This document shows, piece by piece, positions 17,090 through 50,859 of a DNA stretch of 64,000 nt (the stretch's first letter is position 1; each line of letters starts with the position of its first letter). Source of the DNA: Klebsiella phage FKP3. The notes under the pieces were generated by a model. It had not been told where the DNA came from. It ran no database searches and saw only the letters and a program-made list of their open reading frames with translations. The DNA is taken from sequence record PP895363.1; one strand, given 5' to 3'. A program made the translations under genes and the position numbers.

Positions 17090-17383
17090 ATAAACCTTAA
17101 CATCTGATTTATCTTCTTTAAGACTTCGTTCGAATAGGTCGATCACAAAGTCAAGCATTTTTATTAATTCGTTTGTGACGCTCCACTCTTGATATGAACG
17201 CAAGCATGTCTTCTGCTCGCCAATTTGGTGCAGCACCTTGATTGGTGCATCCAGACGAATGTTGCGCTCTTCGTCCTCCTCAAAAGAAGCTAACCACTTC
17301 TCATTAACACCATGAATGGCAATAATGATGCCATACCCTTCTGCGGTTTCTGAGATGTTCTTAGTAGATGCAGTGATGTTCAT
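17084..17383 (-). CDS. hypothetical protein (minus-strand insert in plus block)
   Basis: ORF 99 aa. Confidence 0.4.
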   Translation of the reverse strand: MNITASTKNISETAEGYGIIIAIHGVNEKWLASFEEDEERNIRLDAPIKVLHQIGEQKTCLRSYQEWSVTNELIKMLDFVIDLFERSLKEDKSDVKVYL

Positions 17384-21752: not shown

Positions 21753-23759
21753 ATGAACGTAGGCTTAATTTTTGGCAAATTTGCACCACTAACAGCAGGA
21801 CACGTCAACTTCATTCGTATGGCTGTAGACTCAGGTATTGATCGGCTATATCTGTTTCTGTCGTTTGACCAGAAGTTTAACGACACTCAAACACCTTGGA
21901 TGCAAGACCGCCTTGGTTTAACTCAGCGTTTATTGGATCTTAAATCTTTAATTCATGACTCAGGCTTACAACACAAAGTGATTGTAGATTATGTGGATGA
22001 GTCTGATATTCCTGGTTATCCAGAAGGTGGTAAGGCTTATGCCGAGTTGATTCGTGCTAAAATCCCAGAAGGTGAGATCCTCACTCATGCTTTCTCTTCT
22101 GAGCCGGAGTATACTGAGTACTTTTCCGAGCATTTCCCCGAGGTGGAGCACGTTGTGCTGGATGCAGAGCGTACAGGAGTGGATATCTCTGCAACACGTA
22201 TTCGTACTAATCTACGTGACAACTTCGAGTATTTGTCAAATCAAGCTCGTCCTCGTTTTGTTAAGCGGGTAGCTATCATTGGTGTTGAGAGTTGTGTAGA
22301 TAATTTAACCGAATACTTTGACGGTACAAACTGGAAAAAGATGGATGAGTACCGAGAAGGAGATAAAGTTCTACAATATAACCCTAATGGTTCTGCATCT
22401 CTTGTCCTACCTGAACGTTACATAGCGCAACCCTGTAATAAAATGTACCTGTTGGCTAATAGTTACCAAACTTGGGAACAAGCTTACACGGAAGATCACG
22501 ATATTGTGTATGTTACTTCCAAAGGGAAATTGAAGAAAACACCTTTTAAAAGAGTAAAAGAAGATATTCAGTTTAAACCACACGGTTTTCGGGGAAAGTT
22601 ACTAACCTCTTTTATCTACTCTGGGGAGTTGACACTTCCTGAAAACAACATTCGTTTAGCTGTTATGTTAAGCGCGGACGGAAGTAAACAGAAGAACGGA
22701 ACGTGGCGTGTAAGACTGCTAAAACAACGTAAAGTTCTCAGGGCTAGAGAGTTGATCTTGGCGAGTGGTTATCCTTTGGATGAACGTATTTATGAAGACG
22801 GTTCTCATAACTTCTATCTTCCTAGCGAAGCAGGTTTTAAACTTTTTCCTGATACCTGGTATGAGCTAACAAAAGAATGCAAAGAATATATTTGTGAAGA
22901 AGTTTTATACTGGGATGGTACTAAGAAGACTTCTACATACTTTACCACAGAGAAAAAGAATGCTGAATTTGTACAATACTGTTTCTCTTCAACAGGAAAA
23001 AAGACAAGGTATAGTATAGATAATCGGGAAAATAAACCTTTGACTTACTCTGTGCAATGGTGTAGAAATACAAAGTATCTAACACTAGATGTGAATTCAT
23101 TTAATGAGACACATCGAGAACAAATGGTAAGGGATTACGTGCCAACTGATGGAATGTGTTATTGTTTTACTGTGCCTAGTGGTATGCTAGTGTTGCGTAG
23201 AAATAATCATATCTTTATTACTGGGAACTGTGGAAAATCTACTATGACTGAGGTTCTAGCACAACACTACGGAACAACATCGACACCCGAAGTAGGACGG
23301 CATATTTGCGAACAGATGTACAACGGCAGCGAATTTTTAATGGATCGTGAAGCATATCTTAAGATTGCTATGATCCACCGTATCGAGGAGTTTAGTAACT
23401 CAAACCAGGCAAATGTTGTGCATATTTCAGATACAACTAATCTGATCACTCATTTTTCTGCGATTTGTGCTGGTAAAGTATCTGCTAATGATAAAATGTT
23501 TCGTATGTTATCGCATGAAGAGGCTAGCAAATTTTATGATTTAGTGTTATTCTTGTCCCCAGAGGTGGAGTGGGTAGAAGACCCTCTTCGACTTCAAAAT
23601 ACACCAAGAAAACGCCTTGACACGCATAACTTTCTTGATATGATGGTAACACAATACTACGATGGTCGTGTGCCTGTGGTTCATATTACGGGTGATGACT
23701 ACGAAGATCGTATTAACCAGGCAATAACTGCCATTGATTTACTCTTAGAGGAGAACTAA
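21753..23759 (+). CDS. NadR-like bifunctional NMN adenylyltransferase / ribosylnicotinamide kinase precursor containing an intein
   Basis: N-terminus GKFAPLTAGHVNFI and RTGVDISATRIR match E. coli NadR NMNAT (GKFYPLHTGHIYLI, RTFMSISGAQIR). The C-terminus from ...ITGN-CGKSTMTEVL to the end matches the NadR kinase domain. The two halves are split inside the P-loop by 312 aa. Confidence 0.7.
   Translation: MNVGLIFGKFAPLTAGHVNFIRMAVDSGIDRLYLFLSFDQKFNDTQTPWMQDRLGLTQRLLDLKSLIHDSGLQHKVIVDYVDESDIPGYPEGGKAYAELIRAKIPEGEILTHAFSSEPEYTEYFSEHFPEVEHVVLDAERTGVDISATRIRTNLRDNFEYLSNQARPRFVKRVAIIGVESCVDNLTEYFDGTNWKKMDEYREGDKVLQYNPNGSASLVLPERYIAQPCNKMYLLANSYQTWEQAYTEDHDIVYVTSKGKLKKTPFKRVKEDIQFKPHGFRGKLLTSFIYSGELTLPENNIRLAVMLSADGSKQKNGTWRVRLLKQRKVLRARELILASGYPLDERIYEDGSHNFYLPSEAGFKLFPDTWYELTKECKEYICEEVLYWDGTKKTSTYFTTEKKNAEFVQYCFSSTGKKTRYSIDNRENKPLTYSVQWCRNTKYLTLDVNSFNETHREQMVRDYVPTDGMCYCFTVPSGMLVLRRNNHIFITGNCGKSTMTEVLAQHYGTTSTPEVGRHICEQMYNGSEFLMDREAYLKIAMIHRIEEFSNSNQANVVHISDTTNLITHFSAICAGKVSANDKMFRMLSHEEASKFYDLVLFLSPEVEWVEDPLRLQNTPRKRLDTHNFLDMMVTQYYDGRVPVVHITGDDYEDRINQAITAIDLLLEEN
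22293..23228 (+). mobile_element. intein (312 aa) with LAGLIDADG-type homing endonuclease motif, inserted in the kinase P-loop
   Basis: begins with Cys (CVDNLTEY..GDKVL block A-like), has TEDH (TxxH block B-like) and LAVMLSADGSK (LAGLIDADG-like), ends ...FITGN with +1 Cys; excision restores GVES-CGKST Walker A. Confidence 0.6.
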
Positions 23760-24169: not shown

Positions 24170-24358
24170 ATGAAAATTGGTGATCGTGTAAAATGTATTC
24201 GTAGTGAAAGGGAAAAGATTTACTCTGTAGGTACTATCTACGAAGTAGAAGGGCTGGCAGGTATTGGTGCTATGCTTTTACGTGACAATGATGGGGATCT
24301 TGATTCTATTCCCATCCCAATGAATGGGGCTTTTTGGGATTTTGAGCTAGTTGAATGA
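24170..24358 (+). CDS. small protein (paralog of 23761..23976)
   Basis: ORF 62 aa; TTGACA-17-TAAAGT promoter at 23981-24008. Confidence 0.45.
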   Translation: MKIGDRVKCIRSEREKIYSVGTIYEVEGLAGIGAMLLRDNDGDLDSIPIPMNGAFWDFELVE

Positions 24359-24582
24359 GTTATTTAACAATGGCGGTTAAACTCCACAAGGAAAACCCTG
24401 AGTTGAATTTATCTTTTGATAACCTCTCAGATTATTTCTGGTCATTTGATGGTGACAGCATACTTTACAGTGCTTTGGTTGTGGATATCCTAGAGGATAC
24501 AGGTAATGGTATGTGTCTGGAAGTTCGTTATGAAGTAGAGCAGGATGATCAGTTCATCAAGTTTTATGTTGACAACGGCTGA
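24355..24582 (+). CDS. hypothetical protein
   Basis: ORF 75 aa. Confidence 0.4.
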   Translation: MSYLTMAVKLHKENPELNLSFDNLSDYFWSFDGDSILYSALVVDILEDTGNGMCLEVRYEVEQDDQFIKFYVDNG

Positions 24583-24632: not shown

Positions 24633-24995
24633 ATGATTAAGTGGCTATTGGTGATTGCGCTGTTTATTTCTACAGGCGTGAATGCGCGGGAGGGATTCAA
24701 AGTGGTTGCCAATGGCACTAAATTCTTCACCTGGTATGGTGGTGTAGCTTTATACCAAGATGAAGGTAAGGACATTCGCTGTAAACTGGATAAGAGTATA
24801 AAGTCTGTAGACCAGTGGGGCGATGCCTTTAAAGCCACCGGATTCTCTTGCCGCAAAGACCTGTTCATTGTTGTGAAAGAATATCTCGATATTAATCGTG
24901 TTCTTTTTATTGTTCTTGACCCAAATAAATTTGATCAGAGACACACATATGAGGTAGACTTATTCTTGGAATATAAGGAGGATGAAAAGAAATGA
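24633..24995 (+). CDS. secreted protein (signal peptide)
   Basis: MIKWLLVIALFISTGVNA. Confidence 0.5.
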   Translation: MIKWLLVIALFISTGVNAREGFKVVANGTKFFTWYGGVALYQDEGKDIRCKLDKSIKSVDQWGDAFKATGFSCRKDLFIVVKEYLDINRVLFIVLDPNKFDQRHTYEVDLFLEYKEDEKK

Positions 24996-25366
24996 AAGTT
25001 TTAAATTTCTACCACCTTGGAAAAGTTATTCCTCCTGATGCAGAGTATATCGGACGGGCAATGCCTCATTATGGTCTGAAGGCTTCTAAGTTTGCTAATC
25101 CATTTAAGCTAACCGAGGATGAGCCTCGTGGTGCTACTATACAACGGTATAAAGAATGGTTGTGGGAGCAGATTCGCTCTGGTAAGATAACATTGGAAGA
25201 CTTATTAGCATTAGAAGGAAAAGACTTAGTTTGCTTTTGTAAACAACCTAATAAAGAGGTTGCTTGTCATGGGGATGTTCTCGTTGCTGCCGTAGAATGG
25301 GCTAGGAAAGAATATAACAGGAGAAATTATAAAGACGATTACTGGAACTGGGAGGAAAATTTTTAA
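24992..25366 (+). CDS. hypothetical protein, possibly DUF4326-like
   Basis: weak recollection of DUF4326 pattern (LVCFCKQP..CHGDVL). Confidence 0.3.
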   Translation: MKVLNFYHLGKVIPPDAEYIGRAMPHYGLKASKFANPFKLTEDEPRGATIQRYKEWLWEQIRSGKITLEDLLALEGKDLVCFCKQPNKEVACHGDVLVAAVEWARKEYNRRNYKDDYWNWEENF

Positions 25367-32147: not shown

Positions 32148-32164
32148 GCTGAAGTAATTGACAA

Positions 32165-32186
32165 GGGGCGAAAGCCCCTTTGTTGT
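32165..32186 (+). terminator. GGGGC-GAAA-GCCCC hairpin + T-run
   Basis: GNRA tetraloop hairpin followed by tttgttgttt. Confidence 0.55.
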
Positions 32187-32399: not shown

Positions 32400-33005
32400 A
32401 TGCAACATAGACTGATCGCAAACCTACCACGAGCCAACGATGAACCTCTTGGTGTTCCTGTGGATAAAGTATGGAAAGCACATTTTCATCTTACATTAGC
32501 AGACGTAAGTAGTGAGCAACTCACGGAAGCAGCAAAACTGATTGGTGCAAAATGTACTACAATTGATCTGCACCGTGATACACAATCACAGCGTGACCGT
32601 ATGCTAACTAAGTACCAGGCAGGTATCGAAACAGGTCTTATGTTGGATTGTGTAGCAAAACTGCAAGCCGCTGGATTCAAAGTTGTACGCTATAAACTGG
32701 AACAGATGTTCCGACACATTGCTTGTGTAATGTTCATGGATTTGAGCAAAGAGCATTATGGAGAAGTTCATATCAAGACACCTGCAAGTGCGCCGGAGAT
32801 TGACACTGGCTTCTTCCGTGTATCTTCCAATGCCGAAGAGGTGGATTATCGCTTCTATAATGCTCGTCTATATTCCGCAGAAGATAAGTTGCGTTTCAAT
32901 GAGGCGTATGGTATGCTTCTGGAAAGTGGAATTGAAATGAAAAGCTATCACGTAGAACAAGTGATAGTGGACAGCAACTTAAACCTTGACGCATGGTGGG
33001 CTTAA
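32400..33005 (+). CDS. hypothetical protein
   Basis: ORF 201 aa. Confidence 0.5.
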   Translation: MQHRLIANLPRANDEPLGVPVDKVWKAHFHLTLADVSSEQLTEAAKLIGAKCTTIDLHRDTQSQRDRMLTKYQAGIETGLMLDCVAKLQAAGFKVVRYKLEQMFRHIACVMFMDLSKEHYGEVHIKTPASAPEIDTGFFRVSSNAEEVDYRFYNARLYSAEDKLRFNEAYGMLLESGIEMKSYHVEQVIVDSNLNLDAWWA

Positions 33006-33006
33006 T

Positions 33007-33666
33007 ATGACAATCAAACACATCTCTTTTGACGTATGGAATACTTTGATTACTGCAAATCCTTGGTACAGTGAAATTCGTACTGAAATAATTGCAAAAT
33101 ATGCAAATGTAACTGATCGTGAAGCAGGTACAATGTATAGGAAAGTAAAGAAATATTTAGACCAAAACGCAGAAAAAGGTATTTGTAGTTCTACCTCTAC
33201 TGCTTGGCATGTTTTAGGTAAAACTTTAAACATGGAACTAAAAGCAATTGCTGAGATGCAATATATGTGTGAACAGGCTTTTATTGCTAATCCACCAGAT
33301 TTAAATGGAGACTTAATTGCTCAATTGATGTATCTGAGTTTTAACTATGAATTAAGTATTAAAAGCAATACTAACTTTATCTCAGGTAGAATCTTATCTC
33401 AGACTGTAGACTTTGATAGAATGCCTTGGTGGAGTTTTATGCATTTCTCGGACGAACATCTACTTTGTAAGCCTGACATTTTATTCTTTGCTAAAACTCT
33501 GCTTTCTAGTAAGCTATCTAGCCTAGCAAACTATGAAATTTTGCATATTGGAGACAGTGAAATTTATGATGGGAAGTGTGTTGATTTAGGGTTTAAGTTT
33601 TGTCATATTAAAAACCCACAAGACTTATTAGAGAAACTTGAAAAAGGAGAAATCATTAATGCGTAA
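33007..33666 (+). CDS. HAD-superfamily hydrolase-like protein
   Basis: N-terminal hhhFDVWNTL (motif I with Asp nucleophile, as in DxYGTL haloacid dehalogenases) and IGDSEIYDG (motif IV). Confidence 0.45.
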   Translation: MTIKHISFDVWNTLITANPWYSEIRTEIIAKYANVTDREAGTMYRKVKKYLDQNAEKGICSSTSTAWHVLGKTLNMELKAIAEMQYMCEQAFIANPPDLNGDLIAQLMYLSFNYELSIKSNTNFISGRILSQTVDFDRMPWWSFMHFSDEHLLCKPDILFFAKTLLSSKLSSLANYEILHIGDSEIYDGKCVDLGFKFCHIKNPQDLLEKLEKGEIINA

Positions 33667-34495
33667 TCAAACTCAACACTTTGCCCATACTTTCTCTACC
33701 TTAGAGAATGCCGGTTTCAATGTAGCAGATTATTCGCGGCTGAAATTCGGTAGTAATCAAGCAGCGAAGCGTATGGGGCGCATTCTTGCAGAAAGCTTCT
33801 TTAAAGCCCACTGGAGCCGTCTACTACATAACCAGTTTGTGGTAATACCTTCACCATATAACTACGTTAAAAACGCTGCTACGTTGCTCTCAGAGCATTT
33901 TGTAGATCATCTTAACCATTTGGTAGCTGTGAACAGTAATCATGGCAAAGCTGTGGAGTGGGATATCATTCATCGTAAGGTGAGTTATATCAATGATTAT
34001 GGCTTCCTCAGTAAGGAAGACCGCAAAGCCCTGATTGACGGGGATACTTTCTCGATCAACAAAGATTTCTGGGGAAACAAAAACCTGATCTTCATCGATG
34101 ATGTGAATATTACGGGAACACACGAAGATAAACTTATTGAAATTCTCAATGAAGAAGGAATTACTAATGACACATTCTTCCTCTACTTCGCCAAGTATAA
34201 TGGTACTGAGGCCAACACAGAAGCGGCACTGAATTTCAGTGACATTAACACTATTTCTGCTTTCGTGCAGATGATTAAAGATGAGCCTGATGCTGAGTGT
34301 TTGGTTCGTCCAATCAAATACCTAATGAGCCAGCCAGAAGTGACCTTTAAGGTAGCACTGAGCCAACTTCCACTCTCTTACGTTGAAGCGTTATATTTTG
34401 GTTGTTTGGCTGAGGGTTATAACGGTATCGGGAAGTATGAAGAGAATTTTGAATTCCTAAAACATTTCTTTGAAAGCAACATCTTGAATAAGTAA
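33659..34495 (+). CDS. type I phosphoribosyltransferase (PRTase)-fold protein
   Basis: PRPP-binding signature LIFIDDVNITGTHEDK; overlaps HAD gene end by 8 nt. Confidence 0.6.
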   Translation: MRNQTQHFAHTFSTLENAGFNVADYSRLKFGSNQAAKRMGRILAESFFKAHWSRLLHNQFVVIPSPYNYVKNAATLLSEHFVDHLNHLVAVNSNHGKAVEWDIIHRKVSYINDYGFLSKEDRKALIDGDTFSINKDFWGNKNLIFIDDVNITGTHEDKLIEILNEEGITNDTFFLYFAKYNGTEANTEAALNFSDINTISAFVQMIKDEPDAECLVRPIKYLMSQPEVTFKVALSQLPLSYVEALYFGCLAEGYNGIGKYEENFEFLKHFFESNILNK

Positions 34496-34515
34496 GGAGA
34501 GGTAACGAAAATTAA

Positions 34516-35169
34516 ATGATAAAGGTACATGGCGTAGGTGTTAATGATAGTTTAACGCCTGTCACTAAGAATGCATTTATAGCAGGTAAGTGGAAGCAGG
34601 TGTGGGCTTGCCCCTACTATATGCGATGGAAAGATTTATTACGTAGATGTTATAGTTTACCCGATAATCATAAACATTTTATGGTTTATAAGGACTGCTC
34701 TGTAACACAAGAGTGGCTTATTTTCTCTAATTTCAAGGCTTGGATGAGTGACAAGGATTTAACATTATGCTTAGATAAAGATATTCTTGTGCTAGGAAAT
34801 AAAATTTACTCCCCTACGACTTGTGTTATGATCCCCAATTACGTAAACTGTTTATTAACAGACAGTAGAAAACGTCGTGGCACTTATCCGTTAGGTGTAT
34901 CTTTAAAAAAGAAAAAGAAATCTACAAATACTGACAGGTATCAAGCATATTGCCATACATTAGATAAAGTGGTATACTTGGGCTACCATGATTCTCCTAT
35001 AGAAGCTCATAAAGCTTGGCAAAAACAAAAGATTCTCTCAATAGAGAAGACTATAGAGCAATATGAAAAAGAATCTTATTGTGATAGTAGAGTTGTTGCG
35101 GCATTACAAAGAAGAATTGAAATATTAAACAATGATATTTTGAATGGAAATGAGACAATTAGGATTTAG
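34516..35169 (+). CDS. HNH-type homing endonuclease with AP2-like DNA-binding domain
   Basis: N-terminal Y..W..M..RC motif, LDKDI..GN..P..C nuclease-like region, C-terminal AP2-like GVS..YQAYCH..VYLGYHD. Confidence 0.4.
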   Translation: MIKVHGVGVNDSLTPVTKNAFIAGKWKQVWACPYYMRWKDLLRRCYSLPDNHKHFMVYKDCSVTQEWLIFSNFKAWMSDKDLTLCLDKDILVLGNKIYSPTTCVMIPNYVNCLLTDSRKRRGTYPLGVSLKKKKKSTNTDRYQAYCHTLDKVVYLGYHDSPIEAHKAWQKQKILSIEKTIEQYEKESYCDSRVVAALQRRIEILNNDILNGNETIRI

Positions 35170-35177
35170 GAGGTAGT

Positions 35178-35651
35178 GTGATAAAATACAAAATAGGTGA
35201 CCTATTGTTGGCACATGAGAAAGGGGAAGTGGACACTATAGCACACTGCGCCAACTGCTTTTGTACCTTCGGTGCTGGCATTGCACCAAAAATTAAAGCC
35301 AAATGGCCTGAAGTGTATGCCGCTGATTGTGCAACACAAAAGGGTGATCGCAAGAAACTGGGAACCTTTACTAAAGCTGTCGTGGAAGATGGGGAGTTTA
35401 CTATCTATAACTTATACGGACAGTATGGTTATAGTAAACGTGACTCTGGTATTCGTGACTTAGACTATGACGCTATCTTTGATGCATTGGACGCAATGGG
35501 TGATGATGTAATTGCATGTGGTGGGAAGACAGTAGGACTTCCTCTCATTGGTTGTGGATTAGCTGGCGGAAAGTGGTCTGTAGTTGAAGCTATGATTCAG
35601 GAGACACTCGTCGCCAAAGGTCTAGAAGTTACTATTTTTAAATTAAATTAG
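35178..35651 (+). CDS. macrodomain protein, TARG1/OARD1-like (ADP-ribose removal)
   Basis: GDLL...VDTIAHCANCFCTFGAGIA and GLPLIGCGLAGGKW..VEAMIQE align with the TARG1 motifs (GDLF..DSLAHCISEDCRMGAGIA; LSMPRIGCGLDRLQWENV); GTG start after GGAGG. Confidence 0.65.
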   Translation: MIKYKIGDLLLAHEKGEVDTIAHCANCFCTFGAGIAPKIKAKWPEVYAADCATQKGDRKKLGTFTKAVVEDGEFTIYNLYGQYGYSKRDSGIRDLDYDAIFDALDAMGDDVIACGGKTVGLPLIGCGLAGGKWSVVEAMIQETLVAKGLEVTIFKLN

Positions 35652-35659
35652 GAGAAATT

Positions 35660-35878
35660 ATGGAAATTATTGCTGGGGTTGTAATGTTCTTAGCTATGGT
35701 GGTAGTAGCGTTCTTAATCTGCCTGATACCAACGTGGCTGGTGATGTTGGCGTACAACTATGTTGTCTCGCTCATGGGACATGTTAATTGGGAAGTTCCT
35801 GTAACGTTTTGGAGTGTGGTGTGTGTAGCAGTGATCTTTATCTCTCTTCGCCATATATTTGGAGGAACTCGTAAATGA
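35660..35878 (+). CDS. small membrane protein
   Basis: two TM helices. Confidence 0.45.
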   Translation: MEIIAGVVMFLAMVVVAFLICLIPTWLVMLAYNYVVSLMGHVNWEVPVTFWSVVCVAVIFISLRHIFGGTRK

Positions 35879-36117
35879 AACATATTAAAATCCGTGTTTT
35901 AAAAAGAAATTATGCATCTTTTCGAGATGTTACTGTAGGGAAAGTGTATGCAGCCTTCGTCTTAGACCCTTATGAAAATGTTCCTGAAGCTTATTGGGGT
36001 TATCCTGGGCAAAGAAACGATGATACGGCATCTCTGTGTTTTCGAGATGATGAGGAATATCCTTGTGCGTGTGGATACGATGCCACTGTAAACGAATGTT
36101 TTGAAATAGTAGAATAA
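35875..36117 (+). CDS. hypothetical protein
   Basis: ORF 80 aa. Confidence 0.4.
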   Translation: MKHIKIRVLKRNYASFRDVTVGKVYAAFVLDPYENVPEAYWGYPGQRNDDTASLCFRDDEEYPCACGYDATVNECFEIVE

Positions 36118-36198: not shown

Positions 36199-37251
36199 AT
36201 GAATACTTTCAGCAAATTTTATAAGTGGCCTTCCATCTTTTTTGGAATAGCTTTGATTGCAGGTGCATGGATCGGATATGCAGAAGCGGGGATTACTGGT
36301 TTGATTAACGGGATGGTAGCAGTTGGTATTCTGTGTATTCTTGAAATCTCCCTGTCGTTTGATAACGCTGTACTTAATGCAAAGAAACTCCAAGATATGG
36401 AGCCTAAATGGCGAGACTGGTTTGTTAAGTGGGGTATGCTCATTGCAGTATTTGGTATGCGCTTAGTGTTGCCTATCCTTATTGTGTCTGTTCTAGGCGG
36501 GATGACACCGTGGAAAGCAGTGGATTTAGGTTTACATAATCCGGCAGAATACGCTTCTGTTCTACAAAGTAGTCATCATATTGTAGCAAGTTTCGGTGGT
36601 GCGTTCCTGATGATGGTTGCTCTTGAGTTCTTTTTAGACCATGAGAAAGACAACCACTGGTTCAAATGGATTGAATATCCAATCTCCCACATCGGTAAGA
36701 TTGGTATTGCAGCCGAAGCGGGTATTACAGCAGTTCTGATTCTTCTTGCAAGTCTGGGTGCGCATGACCACGAACGTGTAGTGTTCTGGATCTCTGGTGC
36801 AGCAGGTATTGGTTTGTTCGTAGCAATCCACTTCCTGAAAGAATACCTGGAGTCACATGATGAGAAAGCCTCTGCGGCAGCAGGTGCGGTAGTGAAGTCT
36901 GGTTTAGCTGGTGTGCTCTACCTTGAAGTTCTGGATGCATCCATGTCCTTCGACGGTCTGATTGCAGCATTCGCTATCACTCAATACTTCATCGTGATTA
37001 TGCTTGGTCTGGGCGTTGGTGCGTTCTTTGTGCGAGAAATGACTCTTCATGTTCTGGATTCAGGACATCTGGCAGAGTTCCGCTACTTGGAACACGGTGC
37101 GTTTTACGCAATCTTTGCCCTGGCAAGCATTATGCTCCTAAACTTCTTCTTTGAAGTTCCAGAGGTGGTAACTGGTTTGATGGGTGTAGCATTCTTAGGC
37201 TCTGCGGTGTATCACAGCCACATCCTGAATAAACGTGAAGCGACAGCTTAA
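36199..37251 (+). CDS. TerC-family / DUF475 integral membrane protein
   Basis: two internal repeats each with E(I/V)SLSFDN / LDASMSFDG motifs typical of TerC/DUF475; multiple TM helices. Confidence 0.6.
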   Translation: MNTFSKFYKWPSIFFGIALIAGAWIGYAEAGITGLINGMVAVGILCILEISLSFDNAVLNAKKLQDMEPKWRDWFVKWGMLIAVFGMRLVLPILIVSVLGGMTPWKAVDLGLHNPAEYASVLQSSHHIVASFGGAFLMMVALEFFLDHEKDNHWFKWIEYPISHIGKIGIAAEAGITAVLILLASLGAHDHERVVFWISGAAGIGLFVAIHFLKEYLESHDEKASAAAGAVVKSGLAGVLYLEVLDASMSFDGLIAAFAITQYFIVIMLGLGVGAFFVREMTLHVLDSGHLAEFRYLEHGAFYAIFALASIMLLNFFFEVPEVVTGLMGVAFLGSAVYHSHILNKREATA

Positions 37252-37258: not shown

Positions 37259-37276
37259 AGCCTCCTTCGGGAGGCT
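37259..37276 (+). terminator. UUCG-tetraloop hairpin (agcctcc-ttcg-ggaggct) + ttctat
   Basis: read directly after stop of TerC-like gene. Confidence 0.45.
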
Positions 37277-38238: not shown

Positions 38239-38478
38239 ATGTTTAATAATGCAAAGAAAGGTGATATCGCGGTAATGGTAGATACGGACTTTTCAGCACA
38301 CGGAGATAAAGATCAACTGGAGATTGTCCTAGTTGACGAAGAGGGTATCTACGTCTACGATCCGAATGACAGACTCCTTTTCGAACATGCCAGTGGTGTT
38401 GAATACAGCTTCTGTATTGACTTCAACGGTAAGTTGGCAGGACGTGAGCCAGCAATTAAAGAAATCATTCCGCAGTAA
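38239..38478 (+). CDS. hypothetical protein
   Basis: ORF 79 aa. Confidence 0.45.
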   Translation: MFNNAKKGDIAVMVDTDFSAHGDKDQLEIVLVDEEGIYVYDPNDRLLFEHASGVEYSFCIDFNGKLAGREPAIKEIIPQ

Positions 38479-39445
38479 GGTTGACTTTTGCTTAGGGATA
38501 CTTCATAGTGTCCCTTGTCAAGAGAAATAAATAAATGAAGGAGAAAGTATGAAACTTATTTTAGGTCGTGTGTACAATCTGAGCGGTTCCAGTTTTTCTA
38601 CACAAGTTTTAGAAGATAATAATAATCTGTTCTGGCTGGATCACATTGATCAGAGGATGAACGAGTGGCGTTTTAAAGGTTTGACTACAGGGGATTTTCA
38701 GTGGTCAAGCGCGGCTATGATCCGTGCTGGTGAAGCAGAAATTTTCTTGGTAGATGATAAACCGAAACGTGGTAAGCGTAAGAAAGGCCCATCTCGTAAA
38801 GCACCAAGTGTGAATAAGGCGACTATTCTGTTCATGAGCGGGGAAACCTACACTGTAAAAGGCTTTGTGTCCCTTGAAGCCACTGCTGAAAAAACTGTGT
38901 TTATTATGGAAGACACTTGGAAGGATACAGTAAATAGCCGTAATGGCGACTATTCTGTTCATGAGCGGGGAAACCTACACTGTAAAAGGCTTTGTGTCCC
39001 TTGAAGCCACTGCTGAAAAAACTGTGTTTATTATGGAAGACACTTGGAAGGATACAGTAAATAGCCGTAATGCAATCACTGTGTACAATGAGGATATTGC
39101 GCAGATAGATGTTCGTGGAATTAAGCATCAAGTGGTATTAGATATGGCTTTGAAAGATGAAGGCACGTTAGTGCTTCATTCTAAAGATATGCTAATATTT
39201 TTATCAGATCTAACTATTGCGGAATAAATAACAAAAGATGCATAGTACAAGAGATATTCTAAATTTATGGAAAACTACATTATGTAAATTTAAAGAAGAC
39301 TTTCCTGAATACGATGCCCTGCTAAAGGCCAACGGATGGCGAGCAGGTGTTAGAGAAAAAAGAAATAAATCTTTTGGTTGGGCAGATAATAGAAGTAAGT
39401 TAGTTATTATCAATTGGCATCTGCATAAAAACTCGGAAGAGCATA
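38446..39445. repeat. tandem duplication unit 1 (exactly 1000 bp)
   Basis: 38446-39445 identical to 39446-40445. Confidence 0.9.
38549..39227 (+). pseudogene. gene disrupted by internal 127-bp tandem duplication (two ORF fragments 38549..39004 and 38943..39227)
   Basis: 127-bp unit 38819-38945 repeated at 38946-39072 shifts frame; junction creates a new in-frame ATG for the C-terminal fragment. Confidence 0.6.
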
Positions 39446-39459
39446 GAGCCAGCAATTAA
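39238..39459 (+). pseudogene. truncated copy of SprT-like gene (N-terminal 70 codons) ending at duplication junction
   Basis: identical to first 208 nt of 40238..40816, then diverges at the 1000-bp repeat boundary. Confidence 0.6.
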
Positions 39460-40445
39460 AGAAATCATTCCGCAGTAAGGTTGACTTTTGCTTAGGGATA
39501 CTTCATAGTGTCCCTTGTCAAGAGAAATAAATAAATGAAGGAGAAAGTATGAAACTTATTTTAGGTCGTGTGTACAATCTGAGCGGTTCCAGTTTTTCTA
39601 CACAAGTTTTAGAAGATAATAATAATCTGTTCTGGCTGGATCACATTGATCAGAGGATGAACGAGTGGCGTTTTAAAGGTTTGACTACAGGGGATTTTCA
39701 GTGGTCAAGCGCGGCTATGATCCGTGCTGGTGAAGCAGAAATTTTCTTGGTAGATGATAAACCGAAACGTGGTAAGCGTAAGAAAGGCCCATCTCGTAAA
39801 GCACCAAGTGTGAATAAGGCGACTATTCTGTTCATGAGCGGGGAAACCTACACTGTAAAAGGCTTTGTGTCCCTTGAAGCCACTGCTGAAAAAACTGTGT
39901 TTATTATGGAAGACACTTGGAAGGATACAGTAAATAGCCGTAATGGCGACTATTCTGTTCATGAGCGGGGAAACCTACACTGTAAAAGGCTTTGTGTCCC
40001 TTGAAGCCACTGCTGAAAAAACTGTGTTTATTATGGAAGACACTTGGAAGGATACAGTAAATAGCCGTAATGCAATCACTGTGTACAATGAGGATATTGC
40101 GCAGATAGATGTTCGTGGAATTAAGCATCAAGTGGTATTAGATATGGCTTTGAAAGATGAAGGCACGTTAGTGCTTCATTCTAAAGATATGCTAATATTT
40201 TTATCAGATCTAACTATTGCGGAATAAATAACAAAAGATGCATAGTACAAGAGATATTCTAAATTTATGGAAAACTACATTATGTAAATTTAAAGAAGAC
40301 TTTCCTGAATACGATGCCCTGCTAAAGGCCAACGGATGGCGAGCAGGTGTTAGAGAAAAAAGAAATAAATCTTTTGGTTGGGCAGATAATAGAAGTAAGT
40401 TAGTTATTATCAATTGGCATCTGCATAAAAACTCGGAAGAGCATA
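39446..40445. repeat. tandem duplication unit 2 (exactly 1000 bp)
   Basis: exact copy of the preceding 1000 bp. Confidence 0.9.
39549..40227 (+). pseudogene. second copy of the 127-bp-duplication-disrupted gene
   Basis: identical to 38549..39227. Confidence 0.6.
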
Positions 40446-40816
40446 ACATTGTTGATACTATGCTACATGAGATAGCCCATGCAATAGATTTTTGTAAAAG
40501 AGGTAGATCTGATCATGGCGCTGCATGGAAAGCAATAGCGCAGGAAATAGGAGCTATTCCTAAAGCTGTATCAAAGCGTTCTGTTAAAACAGAATATCCT
40601 TGGGTAATGGCTCTCGTATCAGATGGCGAATTAAGATTTATCAGAGGGTATAATCGCCGTCCTTCTAGGCAAAAACCTAATAGTATAATGTGGGGAACCT
40701 ACCTTAGTAAAGATAAGGAAGGAACCATTGATAAAATTTGGTTATTGTCTTGGGAAGAATGGCTTAAGAAGTGTGATGCTATGGGGATCTCTCCCTACTA
40801 TGAAGACAGAAAATAA
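40238..40816 (+). CDS. SprT-like zinc metallopeptidase-domain protein
   Basis: HEIAH (HExxH) motif in TMLHEIAHAIDF context, about 190 aa. Confidence 0.5.
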   Translation: MHSTRDILNLWKTTLCKFKEDFPEYDALLKANGWRAGVREKRNKSFGWADNRSKLVIINWHLHKNSEEHNIVDTMLHEIAHAIDFCKRGRSDHGAAWKAIAQEIGAIPKAVSKRSVKTEYPWVMALVSDGELRFIRGYNRRPSRQKPNSIMWGTYLSKDKEGTIDKIWLLSWEEWLKKCDAMGISPYYEDRK

Positions 40817-40825: not shown

Positions 40826-41923
40826 ATGTCTAGTCCATTTTTAACTGCTGTTAAAACAACTCCAAGCAAGAGTGCATTGGCTGCAAAAGAAGATACACGG
40901 TCGGCATTAGCCCCAACTGTCTTTGATTCTAGCCCTGTGTATGCGCCTGCTGTAGTAAAACCTGTTCCAGACCTCCCTGCAATGACTCGTAAAGAGATTG
41001 ATAATGTAGGTGCAGAGGCTGGATTAACTCTACGTAGTTTAAACAATGAAGTGCTGAAACATCAGCGTGGTAATCAGGGTGGAGAGATGAATGAACGTCT
41101 CACCGCTCTTATTAAACAAGCTAAACAATTAGACCCCAGCGCGATTAAACAATCGAAGGGTGTTGGCAAGTTCATCAAAAAGTTGATGGGTATGAAAGAA
41201 GACCTGTTTGCAGAGTATGATACTATTAATAATCGTATTGATGTTCTTGTCAAAGAACTGGAGGGCGATGTTAGAAAAGAAGAAGATTCTCTTGTTTATC
41301 TCGAAAAACTTAAAATGGCTATTGGACAATATGCATTAAGTTTAAATCGGGATGTAGAACTTTTGACAGATACCTATGAGAAAGAAGAAGCACGTTTCAA
41401 TATGCTACCAGAGGATCAGGTCGAAGAACGCCAAGCTGTGCGTGATACTTTAGACATTCTGGAGATCCGTATTGCCGACTTAAAAGCGCTGCGTCTTCTT
41501 TGTGTCCAAATGGGGCCACGTGTTAATAGTATGATCAAAGTAAGCGAAATGCTTATGCGATCTGCACGTAACATCGTGAACAATGTTATTCCAGCGTACT
41601 CTGCCAACTTCTCAATGTATATTGAGAGTTTGCGTCAGGCAGAAGCTGGTCAAACCCAAGCTAATGTATTGGATGAATTCCAAGTAGCGCTAAAAATGGG
41701 TAGTGATTTAGCAGCACAAAATATTATTACTGCAACTGAACTCTCTAATCGTCAAGTGCTGGATATTGAAACACTCCGTCACGATCAAGAAAATCTGGTA
41801 CGTATGCTGGAAGAAACAAACCGAATCAATACTGAAGCACGTGCTGCCCGTATTGAGTACATCAATGAAGTACAATCCCTAGAGGATGGGATGGTACAGA
41901 AAGTCAAAGCTGGTTTAGTCTAA
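40826..41923 (+). CDS. TelA-like (toxic anion resistance family) coiled-coil protein
   Basis: length, Ala/Pro/Ser-rich N-terminus followed by long helical Glu/Leu/Arg-rich region resembling TelA/YceH; context next to TerC/TerD genes; no motif check possible. Confidence 0.45.
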   Translation: MSSPFLTAVKTTPSKSALAAKEDTRSALAPTVFDSSPVYAPAVVKPVPDLPAMTRKEIDNVGAEAGLTLRSLNNEVLKHQRGNQGGEMNERLTALIKQAKQLDPSAIKQSKGVGKFIKKLMGMKEDLFAEYDTINNRIDVLVKELEGDVRKEEDSLVYLEKLKMAIGQYALSLNRDVELLTDTYEKEEARFNMLPEDQVEERQAVRDTLDILEIRIADLKALRLLCVQMGPRVNSMIKVSEMLMRSARNIVNNVIPAYSANFSMYIESLRQAEAGQTQANVLDEFQVALKMGSDLAAQNIITATELSNRQVLDIETLRHDQENLVRMLEETNRINTEARAARIEYINEVQSLEDGMVQKVKAGLV

Positions 41924-42532: not shown

Positions 42533-42687
42533 AGAATTTTTGACTTGGTTTGAACGATTTTATGAAAGTAAACCTTACTTTACAAAGGAAGAAAAAGAAG
42601 AGCTTAAGTTTCACACATGGTTTGCATGGCGCGATTCACGCCGTGCAGATGACTTAAAAGAAGTTGAAAAAGGAGATAAAGAATGAG
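42526..42687 (+). CDS. small hypothetical protein
   Basis: hand-found 53-aa ORF. Confidence 0.3.
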
Positions 42688-43477
42688 CGAAAAAATTAGT
42701 CTGGTTAAACGCCAAGAGAAACTCGTAATCAGCCTCAAAAAGAAAAAGATCGCACAGATCACCCTGCGTGTAGCATCTGCGCTGGATATCTCAGGTAGTA
42801 TGGGTAGTCTGTATCGTAATGGTACTGTAAGTGATTTTGTAGGTAAACTCTTACCGTTTGGTATGCAATTTGACGATAATGCTCAGATTGATATGTGGGC
42901 GTTTGACCACGGCTGTCGTGAGCTGCCTCCTGCAACAGCGTCTGTCTATGATGATTATGTAGGCAAGTGTATGCGTGGTATTTCAATCTCCGGTGGTACA
43001 GCCTATGCTCCAGTGATGCAAGAGATTTATGATGAGTATTTTGGTAAAGTACCTATGAAAACCGTCTCTCGTGAGATCGATATACAGGAAAAACGTCCTG
43101 TGAGTGGTTTCTTTGCTAAGCTGACAGGCAAAACCGAAACTGTAACTGTGAAGAAAACTATCACTGAACAAGTACCAGATACTTCTGTGCCAGTCGATAC
43201 AACCCCCGCTATGGTGTTCTTCCAGACAGATGGCGACAACTCTGATAAAGAAGCCGTGCGTAGCCTGCTTTCTCGTAACCGTGGCAAACCTATTTATTGG
43301 TTTATGGTGGGCGTAGGTCAGGAAAGCTTTAGCTTCCTGAAAGAACTCGCTCGTGATTACGATAACGTCGATTTTATTGGCGTAGATGACCTTGACCTTT
43401 CAGATGAAGAACTGTATGATAAGCTTCTGTCTGACGAATTTGGTCAGTGGGTTGAGAAAGTTGGTGCAAAAAGCTAA
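42683..43477 (+). CDS. von Willebrand factor A (vWA) domain protein, TerY-like
   Basis: MIDAS motif LDISGSMGS near N-terminus. Confidence 0.55.
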   Translation: MSEKISLVKRQEKLVISLKKKKIAQITLRVASALDISGSMGSLYRNGTVSDFVGKLLPFGMQFDDNAQIDMWAFDHGCRELPPATASVYDDYVGKCMRGISISGGTAYAPVMQEIYDEYFGKVPMKTVSREIDIQEKRPVSGFFAKLTGKTETVTVKKTITEQVPDTSVPVDTTPAMVFFQTDGDNSDKEAVRSLLSRNRGKPIYWFMVGVGQESFSFLKELARDYDNVDFIGVDDLDLSDEELYDKLLSDEFGQWVEKVGAKS

Positions 43478-43571: not shown

Positions 43572-44174
43572 ATGTCTGAGAAAATTTCCCTCAAAAAAGG
43601 TTCTAGCGAAAAGATTTCCCTGAAGAAAATTGCTCCGCTGCTTAAAGAAATCCGTCTGGAGTTTAGCTGGAAATCTGGTGGTAAACTTGATCTGGACGTT
43701 AGTGCGCTGATTTGCCGTCATAACGCTGCTGGCAACCCAGAGATGCTTTCTGCACGTCATTTAGTGTGCTATGGTAATAAGTTCGACCCAGAGCGTTCTA
43801 CTTTTGCAGGTGCAGATGTTCGTGATGGTACTGGGGAAATGGAACAAATCGACATTACTCTGGATAAAATCTCTGCAAATGCTAATGAGGTAGCTTTTGT
43901 GATTACTATCGACGACGATACTGGTCGTGCTCGCTTAGGTAATGCTACCGAAGGTATGCTGAAAATCTTCGACGCAGAACGTAACGTTGAGATCCTGGAC
44001 TTTGACTTCCTTGCACCGGAAGTTGCTGGTAATACTATCTGCCACGTAGCATCTCTTGTTCGTGAAGACGGTGAATGGAAACTGAAAGCATATGGGGTTG
44101 GTAAAGCTGGTATGGATATTTGCGATGTAGTTGCTGCCTTTGGTGGCGATCCTGCCTGGTACGAATGCCCGTAA
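43572..44174 (+). CDS. terD: TerD-family protein
   Basis: colinear with E. coli TerD: MSxxISLKKG, LDLDxSAL, GTGEMEQIDITLDKIS...VAFVITIDD, GEWKLKAYGVGKAG. Confidence 0.8.
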   Translation: MSEKISLKKGSSEKISLKKIAPLLKEIRLEFSWKSGGKLDLDVSALICRHNAAGNPEMLSARHLVCYGNKFDPERSTFAGADVRDGTGEMEQIDITLDKISANANEVAFVITIDDDTGRARLGNATEGMLKIFDAERNVEILDFDFLAPEVAGNTICHVASLVREDGEWKLKAYGVGKAGMDICDVVAAFGGDPAWYECP

Positions 44175-44235
44175 TCACTATCTATATCGGAGGGTGAAAA
44201 CCCTCCATTTGTAATAAAGAAAAGAGGAGAATAAG

Positions 44236-46783: not shown

Positions 46784-47746
46784 TTGCAAGAACCACAGTT
46801 GTATTTTGATAACAAATTTGGTAGTGGTTGTGATTACCATAGAATAGTTCTGCCCTATACTAATAGTAATTTTAAACCAAAAGAAAATGTACTGGTTTTT
46901 AATAGAGTTTTTTTCTCTTGGTGCCGAGGAAGTAAAAATAGCTAAGTTAAAGGGCTATAAAATAATTGTGGATTTGGATGACTATTATGAGTTAAATAAA
47001 GAACACTATTTAGCCAAGCATTTTACAGAACATGCTAAAGTAATTGAAGAGATGGTTAAGTTGGCAGATGTTGTTACTGTTACAACAGAATACTTAGCAT
47101 ACAAACTTCGTCATTTAAATAGAAATATTGTGGTGATTAAAAATGCATTACCTTTTGATCAACTACAATTCACTTTAAGTGAAGACACTACATCAAACAC
47201 ACCTATCGTTTGGGCGGGAGGTGCTAGTCATGAACGGGATTTGAGTTTAGTTGTAAATTCTTTTCCAGCAGGACTATTTACTATTGCCGGGTATGATATT
47301 TATCCAACCGCAAAGCCAGGGTCAATTGAATGTTTAGTACACTCTGCATGGGCTAAAATAATGACTAAATTTCCAGCAAGCAATTACGTAAAAGCCATTA
47401 AAGATTTAAATACGTATATGAATGTGTATAATGGTCATCAAATAGCAATCGCGCCTTTGGTAGAGAATGAGTTCAATGCTTGTAAAAGTAATCTTAAAAT
47501 CTTAGAAGCTGGCGCTAAAGGTCTGCCTATTGTTTGCTCTAAAGTGTTACCCTATTACAATCCTATAGATGAAAAGTAGTAATTTACGCTGAAAATACTT
47601 TTGAATGGAAACAAGAGGTTGACAAATTACTAAAAAATCCAAACTATAGAAAAGATAAAGGTGAGGCTCTAGCAGAACATGTCCGTTTACACTATGCACT
47701 AGAAGATGCTAATGAATTACGTCGCCAAGTGGTTGAAAGTTTATAA
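46784..47746 (+). pseudogene. GT-B-like glycosyltransferase interrupted by two homopolymer frameshifts (T7 at 46908-46914; A4 at 47572-47575)
   Basis: three consecutive frames each encode a credible GT segment: TTG-start FDNKFGSGCDYHRIVLPY.., then ..KIIVDLDD..PIVWAGGASHERD..AKGLPIV.., then IYAENTFEWKQEVDKLLKNP..AEHVRLHY. Confidence 0.5.
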
Positions 47747-49841: not shown

Positions 49842-50159
49842 ATGATAAAGTTAAAAGGTTCTGTTACTACAGTAGAAGAAATGGATGTAGAAATAACTCC
49901 GAAAGAACTCTCAGCTCAAACACAGAAAAATTTTTCAGCATTTGAAATTGTACAAATGGCTTATCTTAAGTGGTTAGGTAGTAAAGGTCTTGGTTCAGAC
50001 ATTAAACTCTGCCATAACTCCCACGCAGGGTATTATTTTACAGAGTATGAAAATCATGGAAGCCATTATTCAGGATACTATGAAGTTCGTGGGGCGTATG
50101 AAGAAGGCGATGAAATAATTTATAATCAATTCCAAGAATTAATGGCTATTCTTAAATAA
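49842..50159 (+). CDS. hypothetical protein
   Basis: ORF 105 aa. Confidence 0.45.
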   Translation: MIKLKGSVTTVEEMDVEITPKELSAQTQKNFSAFEIVQMAYLKWLGSKGLGSDIKLCHNSHAGYYFTEYENHGSHYSGYYEVRGAYEEGDEIIYNQFQELMAILK

Positions 50160-50172
50160 TAAGGAGGAAGAC

Positions 50173-50859
50173 TTGAAACGTACTGAACATTATCTATACA
50201 ATACTTGGAATTGCATGACACAACGTTGTGAAAATCCAAACAATTCCAACTATACTCAATATGGTTTGAAAGGTATTGATGTTTGTGAACGTTGGTCTTC
50301 CTTTAATCCAGAAGGTTTTAATAACTTTATTCACGACATGGGTGATCGTCCAGAAGGTATGACTTTAGATAGGATAGACACATATAAAGGGTATTCTGTA
50401 GATAACTGTCGATGGGCATCAAAAAGAACTCAACAAAATAATAGACGCATTAATAAGAATAATACCAGTACTGTGCCAGGTGTTCAATGGTCGTCAAATT
50501 CCTCTTGTTGGGTAGCTTCTATATTTCTAAATGGTAAAAATGTTGTTATAGGTAGGTATTCAAATCTAAAAACAGCAGAAAAGTATTATCAACGATCTCT
50601 TGCAATCAAACAAAAATATACAGATAATCTTGCCCTCCTTTGGATAAAAAGGCAAACAGTAAGAACACCCAAAGATAAAAGACTTAATGTACATAAAACT
50701 TCTAAGTATTATGGTGTGTCTTGGGACAAATCACGTAATAAGTGGAAAGCACAAGTAAGTGAAAGACGAGAAGGAAGGCTCGTATCCGTTTTTATTGGTA
50801 GATATAACAGAGAAGAAGAGGCACGAGATGCTGTTTTAAAATATTTGGAGGTGAAATGA
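50173..50859 (+). CDS. HNH homing endonuclease with two AP2 DNA-binding domains
   Basis: YNTWNCMTQRC..YGLKGIDVCERW, LDRIDTYKGYSVDNCRWAS..QQNNRR, then two GVxW..W.A.I..GR.. AP2-like repeats; sits between primase-helicase and DNA polymerase. Confidence 0.6.
   Translation: MKRTEHYLYNTWNCMTQRCENPNNSNYTQYGLKGIDVCERWSSFNPEGFNNFIHDMGDRPEGMTLDRIDTYKGYSVDNCRWASKRTQQNNRRINKNNTSTVPGVQWSSNSSCWVASIFLNGKNVVIGRYSNLKTAEKYYQRSLAIKQKYTDNLALLWIKRQTVRTPKDKRLNVHKTSKYYGVSWDKSRNKWKAQVSERREGRLVSVFIGRYNREEEARDAVLKYLEVK

Follow-up and report, generated by a model that had tools for sequence, protein, structure and literature searches.

Within a 64,000-nucleotide stretch of DNA from Klebsiella phage FKP3 (sequence record PP895363.1; this whole stretch is hereafter called the window), two overlapping genes encode a HAD-IA-type hydrolase and a phosphoribosyltransferase (PRTase) of the PRTase_3 family. 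This pair is a fixed cassette, the biosynthetic arm that was proposed for Ter systems in 2012 and reported from phages in 2021, and we are confident that the pair belongs to the Ter system. A gene for a stand-alone macrodomain lies shortly downstream, and a first-pass annotation of the same DNA had joined all three into one module that would rebuild NAD, naming the synthesis of a Ter-associated metabolite as its alternative. On balance we favor a different arrangement, in which two functionally separate units stand side by side in a phage accessory region: the HAD and PRTase_3 pair of the Ter system, and a macrodomain of the Adpp/SCO6735 type.

Anantharaman, Iyer and Aravind are said to have read the PRTase and HAD arrangement of Ter systems, in 2012, as the synthesis of a nucleoside-like metabolite. 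The same two enzymes have been predicted to be a “signal biosynthesis” component of Ter systems, including those of jumbo phages and of some related smaller tailed phages (PMC7824862, section 3.4.10). The neighborhoods of 41 PRTase_3 loci (2 annotated relatives, 2 metagenomic phage contigs, 16 IMG/VR contigs, and 21 genome contigs) were compared; 8 are Stephanstirmvirinae-type loci, 14 are rhizobial, and the other 19 come from phages, Bacteroidales, Peribacteria and Pedococcus. Neighboring genes were judged by single-query phmmer and blastp clustering, which divergent Ter genes may escape, and some of the loci end early at contig ends. The HAD gene is found directly upstream of PRTase_3 in 40 of the 41, the exception (L033) having a fragmented PRTase. 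Among the 19 other loci, TerD is encoded within 8 kb of the pair in 12, vWA-TerF in 8, TelA in 5, and a TerC-family cluster of the PF03741 type in 4; phmmer adds the DUF475-like TerC family in further loci of this group (for example, L003, L009, L015, L017, and L041). Independent precomputed Pfam calls place the same Ter neighbors on L003 and L004, contigs from unrelated phages, and on the actinobacterial chromosome of Pedococcus (L041) the order is TelA-TerD-TerD-TerC-vWA-TerD-TerD-HAD-PRTase_3-PRTase_3, the same pair closing a classical actinobacterial Ter cluster. Since these neighbors recur across very different phages and bacteria, an actinobacterial chromosome included, chance co-location of the pair and the Ter genes is hard to hold.

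In the window, all four kinds of Ter gene (TerD, TelA, TerC-family, and vWA-TerF) lie within 11 kb of the pair, interleaved with unrelated phage genes over about 11 kb; that Ter-like genes are close by had already been seen in the first-pass annotation. The Pfam family (PRTase_3), the adjoining HAD and the TerD, TelA, TerC-family, and vWA-TerF neighbors are those of the Ter PRTase and HAD module described before, of which the window holds a minimal version, one PRTase and one HAD. The conserved cassette with its Ter genes, and the L041 cluster, thus favor for HAD and PRTase what the annotation had offered as its alternative, namely that these genes may make a Ter-associated metabolite. PRTase_3 proteins of the window type are carried by rhizobial chromosomes and plasmids; on enterobacterial ter plasmids they were not found, the only plasmids to carry them being rhizobial, and acquisition of the gene from host ter plasmids was rejected on that ground.

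The genes in question are the following; the family assignments of the HAD, PRTase, and macrodomain stand well clear of chance matches.
32400-33005, plus strand: p201, a protein of 201 residues (PHROG 22504), with its stop one base before the HAD ATG.
33007-33666, plus strand: HAD-IA-type hydrolase, 219 residues (PHROG 14393).
33659-34495, plus strand: PRTase_3, a ComF-like type I phosphoribosyltransferase, 278 residues (PF15610).
34516-35169, plus strand: HNH-family homing-endonuclease-like open reading frame (ORF), 217 residues (PHROG 953).
35178-35651, plus strand: stand-alone macrodomain, 157 residues (PF01661; PHROG 335).
35660-36117, plus strand: two small ORFs.
36199-37251, plus strand: DUF475/TerC membrane protein (PF04332, E 2e-92; PF03741, E 4e-16).
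40238-40816, plus strand: SprT-like protein.
40826-41923, plus strand: TelA family protein, a Ter-system component (PF05816, E 4e-33; PHROG 5890, E 6e-115).
42683-43477, plus strand: vWA-TerF-like protein, a Ter-system component (PF10138, E 1.4e-41).
43572-44174, plus strand: TerD-domain protein, a Ter-system component (PF02342, E 1e-27).

By the DNA of the window, the source phage is a Stephanstirmvirinae-type Klebsiella myovirus. About half of the segment 32400-37300 aligns, at 92-93% nucleotide identity, with Klebsiella phages phi1_175008, KP2025, and KP13-26; the Phapecoctavirus and Justusliebigvirus phages that infect E. coli are more distant kin. The HAD and PRTase genes overlap by 8 nucleotides, as had been reported: the HAD stop ends at 33666, and the PRTase begins at the ATG of 33659, which is preceded by an AAGGAG Shine-Dalgarno sequence and lies inside an open frame of 33638-34495. 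For the HAD, the ATG at 33007 is more likely the start than the TTG at 32986; it stands one base past the p201 stop, and in relatives a 219-residue protein is annotated. All motifs quoted in the annotation were recovered from the translations: FDVWNTL and GDSEIYDG from the ORF ending at 33666, LIFIDDVNITGTHEDK from 33638/33659-34495, and both AHCANCFCTFGAGIA and GLPLIGCGLAGGKW from 35178-35651. The macrodomain starts with GTG, preceded by an AGGAGG Shine-Dalgarno sequence. It does follow the PRTase nearby downstream, as stated at first, but not directly, since the 217-residue homing-endonuclease-like ORF (34516-35169) has been inserted between them. GC-rich hairpins with short T tracts occur at 32163-32180, 37259-37276, and 44189-44206, just past the AAA ATPase, TerC, and TerD genes, and weakly suggest that the region may be split into two transcription blocks, one running from p201 to TerC and another ending at TerD.

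The PRTase matches PRTase_3 (PF15610) with E 1.1e-41 and 143.4 bits (cut-off 28.7) across profile positions 8-264 of 264, and this is its sole Pfam match. A word-indexed search gave 356 homologs at E <= 1e-3, many at about 50% identity, and the family is present in 156 of 50,697 phage records. Within an alignment of 31 homologs, extending down to 49% identity, the phosphoribosyl pyrophosphate (PRPP) loop FIDDVxITGTHE is invariant; the loop reads FIDDVNITGTHE in the window, and D147, D148, T152, G153, and T154 are unchanged in all 31. Also invariant are an SPYN motif and a SYxxDYGFL stretch, the latter being the sole low-confidence segment of the structural model, as expected of a flexible loop, and hence a candidate for the catalytic loop. 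The AlphaFold2 model (mean predicted local distance difference test score, 92.6) has a type I PRTase core and an all-helical C-terminal third, from about residue 187. The 50 PDB matches listed by Foldseek are all type I PRTases, distant ones (HGPRT, PyrR, ComF, APRT) with TM scores of 0.3-0.5 and 9-15% identity in alignments spanning about 150-235 columns of the 278-residue model; Nampt, NadV, and Namat are not among these 50, nor did they appear in profile searches. Searching PDB sequences with the family profile returned nothing significant (E-values >= 0.4). Family, predicted fold, and profile results together point to a divergent type I enzyme of the PRTase_3 family, as the annotation had it with respect to fold type, and to neither an ordinary salvage enzyme nor one of the Nampt/Namat type (type II). 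The likeness to NadV or Namat for which Foldseek had been proposed was thus not borne out, and a grouping with ordinary salvage enzymes goes no further than the level of the fold.

The hydrolase is well defined among phages (PHROG 14393 “hydrolase,” E 3e-91), and outside them its matches are weak: TIGR02252, the REG-2-like HAD-IA subfamily, at 3e-6, which is below the cut-off of that model, and PDB entry 2om6 at 1.7e-3, which carries the same FDVWNTL motif. Its motifs read SFDVWNT (I), S-N-T (II), CKP (III), and GDSEIYD (IV). The nucleophile Asp, S-N-T/S of motif II, KP of motif III, and GDxxxxD of motif IV are kept in 40 aligned family members, so the window protein has the nucleophile, the motif II Ser/Thr, the motif III Lys, and the motif IV acidic pair of canonical HAD phosphatases.

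The macrodomain differs from the pair in its distribution. Its family occurs in 2,867 of the 50,697 phage records, among them those of T4-like, Felixounavirus-like, and PB1-like phages; a macrodomain stands no more than 8 kb from the pair in 7 of the 8 Stephanstirmvirinae-type loci and in 1 of the 19 others. The junction between PRTase and macrodomain is empty in KP2025; phi1_175008 has a 564-bp gene there, and the window has the endonuclease-like ORF. Given the family counts and this variable junction, the adjacency is a feature of one phage lineage and not of the system; the idea that the macrodomain regularly accompanies the pair was rejected (1 of 19 other loci; 2,867 against 156 phage records), and a single module of PRTase, HAD, and macrodomain is not supported.

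By sequence the macrodomain belongs to the TARG1/ALC1-like class, of the SCO6735/Bt_1257/Adpp type. It scores just over the gathering threshold of PF01661 (E 6.8e-5) and matches PHROG 335 at E 8e-48; the PDB sequences that it matches include Bt_1257 (4e-16), SCO6735 (1e-15), TARG1/OARD1 (6.3e-11, aligned over the full length), and DarG (8e-4). The closest characterized relative is Adpp of Vibrio phage Gary (KNV71_gp137), with 42% identity and E 1e-35 over residues 1-156 against 1-158, and 108 bits against the 62 of Bt_1257 and SCO6735. Adpp itself is a far better match to TARG1 and SCO6735 than to Poa1p, so Adpp, TARG1, and SCO6735 can be treated as one sequence class. The window protein and Adpp share the motifs NCFC...G.GIAP, YGQY, and GLPLIGCGLAGG.W, both are phage macrodomains of the PHROG 335 “phosphatase” type, and the phage lineage has Adps and Namat; unlike Adpp, the window gene adjoins a Ter-type PRTase_3 and lies outside any NARP1 operon, its neighbors being PRTase_3, the HNH-like ORF, and small membrane ORFs rather than Adps and Namat. 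Adpp sits between those two genes, and converts ADP-ribose (ADPR)-1''-phosphate to ADPR; the extended NARP1 pathway, NARP1-AP, depends on it to overcome aRES, a defense by a RES-domain NAD+ phosphorylase (bioRxiv 10.64898/2026.01.28.702374).

The key residues are His23, Asn26, Gln82, and G125-C-G-L-A129-G-G, together with a long mobile loop. The first-pass annotation had called the protein TARG1-like, which holds for its class; the catalytic dyad of TARG1 (Lys84-Asp125) is replaced by Gln82 and Ala129, as in SCO6735 (PMC9411070). SCO6735 strips thymidine-linked ADP-ribose from DNA and protects E. coli against DarT, for which Asn27, Gln85, and Gly128 are required (PMC9411070); equivalents of these three are kept (N26, Q82, and the GCGLAGG motif), as is the longer mobile loop of the SCO6735 type (YGQYGYSKRDSGIRD), whereas the Val25 position is Cys24. 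SCO6735 and Bt_1257 (PDB 5E3B, 2FG1; PMC9411070) have Gln in place of the TARG1/DarG catalytic Lys, just as the window macrodomain does, and about one-third of the residues are identical; SCO6735 comes not from a phage but from a bacterium, and is linked to DNA damage. With TARG1/OARD1 and DarG the protein shares the macrodomain class and significant sequence similarity, but it lacks Lys84 and Asp125 of TARG1, Lys80 of DarG, and the DarT-binding domain. The DarG models are matched in part: NCBIfam NF048014 at E 4e-11, with 42.7 bits against a cut-off of 250 over the macro part (positions 1-147 of 338), and the PADLOC model at E 5.5e-13, well below its cut-off. The 157-residue protein thus has neither a score above the DarG cut-off nor the catalytic Lys nor a C-terminal DarT-binding domain.

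The question of NAD+ reconstitution could be addressed from the gene content of the lineage. The window holds a NadR-like gene (21753-23759) but no PnuC, Adps, or Namat; tblastn with a real Namat as query found nothing in it. The relative phi1_175008 (PQ360875.1) encodes a NadR-like protein and PnuC, the NARP3 type (PMC13464706), and at 50054-52951 a Prs-like Adps and a 572-residue Namat, respectively 41% and 37% identical to their counterparts in the Thalassavirus NARP1-AP operon; these two genes lie beyond the segment matched by the window, about 60 kb from the macrodomain, and the NARP1 pair is therefore shown for a 93%-identical relative, not for the source phage itself. With NARP1 and NARP3-type genes in phi1_175008, NAD+ reconstitution in the lineage is already accounted for by known enzymes and does not call for PRTase_3. 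The window PRTase has no homology to the type II Nampt family and no Prs-like Adps gene next to it, and in the loci examined from other lineages PRTase_3 is not accompanied by NadR, Adps, or Namat. All that it has in common with NARP1 Namat or with NadV is the general transfer of a phosphoribosyl or ADP-ribosyl group from a pyrophosphate donor; it is of another fold and family, with no detectable similarity, and the genuine Namat of the lineage is a separate 572-residue protein encoded elsewhere. A Namat/NadV role was therefore rejected on fold and family, on neighborhood, and on the presence of true Adps and Namat in the relative, and PRTase_3, with its obligatory hydrolase partner, is a poor candidate for NAD+ reconstitution. 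The nicotinamide ADPR-pyrophosphate transferase suggested earlier accordingly finds no support here; the broader theme of NAD and ADP-ribose is not supported for the PRTase and is plausible for the macrodomain, by way of Adpp and along a route which had not been named. Judged by its sequence, the macrodomain could plausibly serve Adps and Namat in trans.

Some further features of NAD-related genes may be recorded. At 24342-24415, set against L001 1212-3885, the PnuC-like transporter, a small ORF, and the rIIA-like gene of phi1_175008 are missing (no tblastn match); with PnuC missing there, the source phage has half of a NARP3-type pair in its NadR region. The NadR-like ORF (nicotinamide mononucleotide [NMN] adenylyltransferase/ribosylnicotinamide kinase) has 668 residues against 355 in relatives, and a 312-residue in-frame insertion (about 22293-23228) splits the Walker A motif of the kinase (GVES / C...ITGN / CGKST). 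Beginning with Cys, ending with Asn, and followed by Cys, the insertion resembles an intein; Pfam revealed no intein domain in it. A DUF4326 protein is encoded at 24992-25366 (E 1e-18), 10 kb upstream of the macrodomain, and DUF4326 has been predicted to link NAD-utilizing systems of the Macro, SLOG, and NADAR types with DNA modification (Iyer et al., 2021, PMC7824862). Phage phi1_175008 also encodes a Sir2-like protein and a Nudix hydrolase (16312-17190 and 47371-47712), outside the segment matched by the window.

Given the family membership, the intact PRPP loop, the HAD nucleophile, the strict pairing, and the Ter association, we propose that PRTase_3 would join a host-supplied, base-like acceptor to PRPP, giving a ribonucleoside 5'-monophosphate, and that the translationally coupled HAD would hydrolyze this monophosphate to a nucleoside-like product; the chances of this particular scheme, from base and PRPP through monophosphate to nucleoside, we put at about even. 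This product would work together with TerD, TelA, vWA-TerF, and TerC-family proteins, whose genes follow 2-10 kb downstream; the cell envelope is the probable site of action, and the exclusion of competing phages or the stress tolerance of the infected cell might be its purpose. The macrodomain would be an independent hydrolase of ADP-ribose derivatives, from the widespread Adpp/SCO6735-like family of phages, whose position beside the PRTase would be a lineage-specific accident of gene order. Most likely it would convert ADPR-1''-phosphate to ADPR, feeding the Adps and Namat (NARP1) encoded elsewhere in the genome, and thereby counter a RES-type NAD+ phosphorylase defense; it may also, or instead, strip ADP-ribose from DarT-modified DNA.

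Several observations weigh against this proposal. The 14 rhizobial loci have the pair with no Ter genes within 10 kb, and the viral contigs L010, L011, L014, L016, and L019 have it with no Ter gene within reach (for L020, the downstream sequence is too short to judge), so the pair can exist apart from Ter. Pfam scans of the main ORFs over 29-45 kb gave none of the ATP-grasp and C-C lyase genes that belong to the extended Ter module of enterobacteria, and in the literature no experimental work on the Ter PRTase and HAD enzymes was found. The hydrolase reads D-V-W-N-T where canonical HAD phosphatases have the motif I DxDx(T/V), and its Asp+2 position, the acid/base site in phosphatases, is Trp in all aligned family members but one, which has Tyr; with the general acid/base replaced in this way, the label “phosphatase” is not secure. 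Dehalogenases, phosphonatase, and P-type ATPases typically have another residue in place of Asp+2, and a family-wide Trp (one Tyr) at this position, as read from the alignment, is a new detail. For the macrodomain, Poa1p ranked last among the PDB sequences (E 0.15-1), after the de-ADP-ribosylases Bt_1257, SCO6735, and TARG1; Adpp genes lie in NARP1 operons, the nearest of which is here about 60 kb off, in the relative and outside the window. Two of the hairpins (32163-32180 and 37259-37276), which resemble terminators, flank p201, HAD, PRTase, macrodomain, and TerC as one block, and, bounded in this way, the macrodomain may be co-expressed with the pair.

Other readings of these genes have to be weighed against the two-unit proposal. 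The macrodomain might chiefly be an anti-DarT2 factor, a stand-alone protein like DarG or AdfM which strips thymidine-linked ADP-ribose from phage DNA and perhaps blocks DarT by binding it; we consider this unlikely, although it is the least improbable of the rival readings, and it need not exclude activity as an ADPR-1''-phosphate phosphatase. The best relatives of solved structure, Bt_1257 (4e-16) and SCO6735 (1e-15), speak for it, as does the ability of the latter to reverse DarT marks, with the equivalents of its Gln85, Asn27, and Gly128 and the mobile loop all present (PMC9411070); DarG models are matched (NCBIfam, 4e-11; PADLOC, 5.5e-13), and AdfM provides a precedent, a phage macrodomain shown to be an anti-DarT2 factor in chimalliviruses (PMC13309987). 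Yet Adpp is closer by sequence (108 versus 62 bits) and has a demonstrated activity on a free metabolite, the catalytic Lys of AdfM and DarG is absent, the DarG score (42.7) falls far short of the cut-off of 250 with the DarT-binding C-terminal domain missing, and Val25 of SCO6735 is Cys24 here. The remaining alternatives concern the pair. It could make a ribosylated molecule independent of Ter, either an antimetabolite-like nucleoside or a decoy against nucleotide-based immunity of the host, the Ter link reflecting no more than a shared “accessory island.” We find this doubtful: the 14 rhizobial loci and the five viral contigs without Ter genes fit it, nucleoside-antibiotic pathways as a rule release free nucleosides by a PRTase followed by a HAD phosphatase (ToyH/ToyI of toyocamycin, for instance), and bacterial effectors of the PRTase type are reported to take part in phage-host conflict (ShosT and Retron-Eco11), but TerD, vWA, TelA, or TerC stands beside the pair in most non-rhizobial loci.

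Reconstitution of NAD+ by PRTase_3, macrodomain, and NadR-like enzyme together, with a PRTase_3 like Namat or NadV acting on nicotinamide with PRPP or ADPR-pyrophosphate, appears very improbable. It can draw on the closest characterized homolog of the macrodomain, which works in NAD+ reconstitution, on the nearness of a macrodomain to PRTase_3 in 7 of 8 Stephanstirmvirinae-type loci, maybe within one hairpin-bounded block, and on nicotinamide being formally conceivable as an acceptor; against it stand the type I fold, with Nampt, NadV, and Namat missing from the 50 listed Foldseek matches and from the profile searches, the 33 other loci of the pair, where no nearby NadR-like gene was detected and a macrodomain occurs in one, and the lack of an adjoining Adps-like kinase. 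By pathway logic the obligatory HAD partner would undo the NMN-forming step, and a relative already has true Adps and Namat, besides NadR-like and PnuC proteins (PMC13464706). Hardly more credible is ordinary nucleotide salvage, or the supply of precursors for DNA modification, by a divergent purine or pyrimidine PRTase. Some GenBank records do label PRTase_3 a “putative orotate phosphoribosyltransferase,” its structural neighbors include HGPRT, APRT, and PyrR, and the phage is rich in genes for nucleotide metabolism; but the likeness is confined to the fold (TM 0.3-0.5, 9-15% identity, profile E >= 0.4), a hydrolase stripping the phosphate from the product is not expected beside a salvage enzyme, and the neighbors are Ter genes, not genes of nucleotide metabolism. 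A more speculative scheme, which we regard as a long shot, gives PRTase_3 and the Trp-variant HAD a non-standard chemistry, by a long-lived aspartyl intermediate or a hydrolysis other than that of a phosphatase: a hitherto undescribed ribosylated signal made from a common host base would switch on an envelope response of TerD, TelA, TerC, and vWA proteins, and the macrodomain of Stephanstirmvirinae would process an ADP-ribose-like precursor or by-product. If true, this would link the Ter system to NAD and ADP-ribose metabolism.

The proposal of a Ter pair beside an independent macrodomain leaves the other genes of the region to be described. Upstream, p201 is an alpha+beta, enzyme-like protein without a Pfam family, with 252 family representatives and with relatives by fold in phage ME3 and giant viruses. 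It matches two PADLOC models labeled “AbiEi” over the full length of the models (E 3e-13), and 13 residues (H30, T32, R97, K99, E101, E122, H124, S142, N144, E186, D191, D197, and W200) are invariant in 40 distant relatives. Some family members are fused to NUDIX domains or to HD_4 domains of the RelA/SpoT type, and one homolog lies directly upstream of the anti-CBASS gene Acb1, others being beside unrelated genes; p201 is possibly a nucleotide-signal-processing or anti-defense enzyme. Among the PRTase_3 loci it is found only in 6 of the Stephanstirmvirinae type, and within 8 kb of the pair in none of the 19 others; as a third member of the cassette it was rejected, being present in none of the 33 non-Stephanstirmvirinae loci and absent from the L007/L008 type. 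The homing-endonuclease-like ORF aligns with PHROG 953, an HNH-endonuclease family (E 2e-77), over its C-terminal half only, at profile positions 198-399 of 420; it has no Pfam match and is an insert lying outside the module. With the PRTase-macrodomain junction empty in KP2025, occupied by another gene in phi1_175008, and by this ORF here, the junction appears to be an insertion hot spot.

The DUF475 gene (36199-37251) has its only nucleotide match in phage 05F01, and the protein most resembles its counterparts in 05F01 and in contigs from distant jumbo phages. In the same TerC slot, a different paralog, of the PF03741 type (L001, 15787-16767), is present in the nearest relatives, which looks like a cassette replacement within a conserved functional slot. 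Further downstream there is an exact tandem duplication of 1,000 bp, 38446-39445 being 100% identical to 39446-40445, with nested exact tandem duplications of 127 bp (38818-38944/38945-39071 and 39818-39944/39945-40071), where each unit is present only once in the relatives L001 and L002. These duplications frameshift the gene upstream of SprT, giving ORFs of 151 and 94 residues, and leave a truncated SprT start of 73 residues in copy 1; the round length of the larger one suggests an artifact of assembly or construction rather than biology. The ORF at 16133-17089 contains a CapR homology domain (E 3e-10) and a weak match to MUG113/T5orf172, which is GIY-YIG-like.

Many virulence plasmids and phages carry Ter genes, and we know of no identification of the predicted Ter metabolite since 2012. 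This lineage offers about the smallest Ter biosynthetic arm, two overlapping genes, in readily grown phages of E. coli and Klebsiella (E. coli K-12 was the isolation host of some relatives, such as PaulScherrer and alia), and so minimal an arm in such tractable phages brings the product, and the way it connects to TerD, TelA, and TerC, within reach of direct tests. The family-wide Trp at the acid/base position of the HAD is a caution against taking the textbook “phosphatase” step as correct. For the macrodomain, the sequence comparisons suggest that Adpp-like enzymes may act in trans with a distant NARP1; if this is true, predictions of defense evasion made from operon-embedded Adpp alone would miss thousands of phages.

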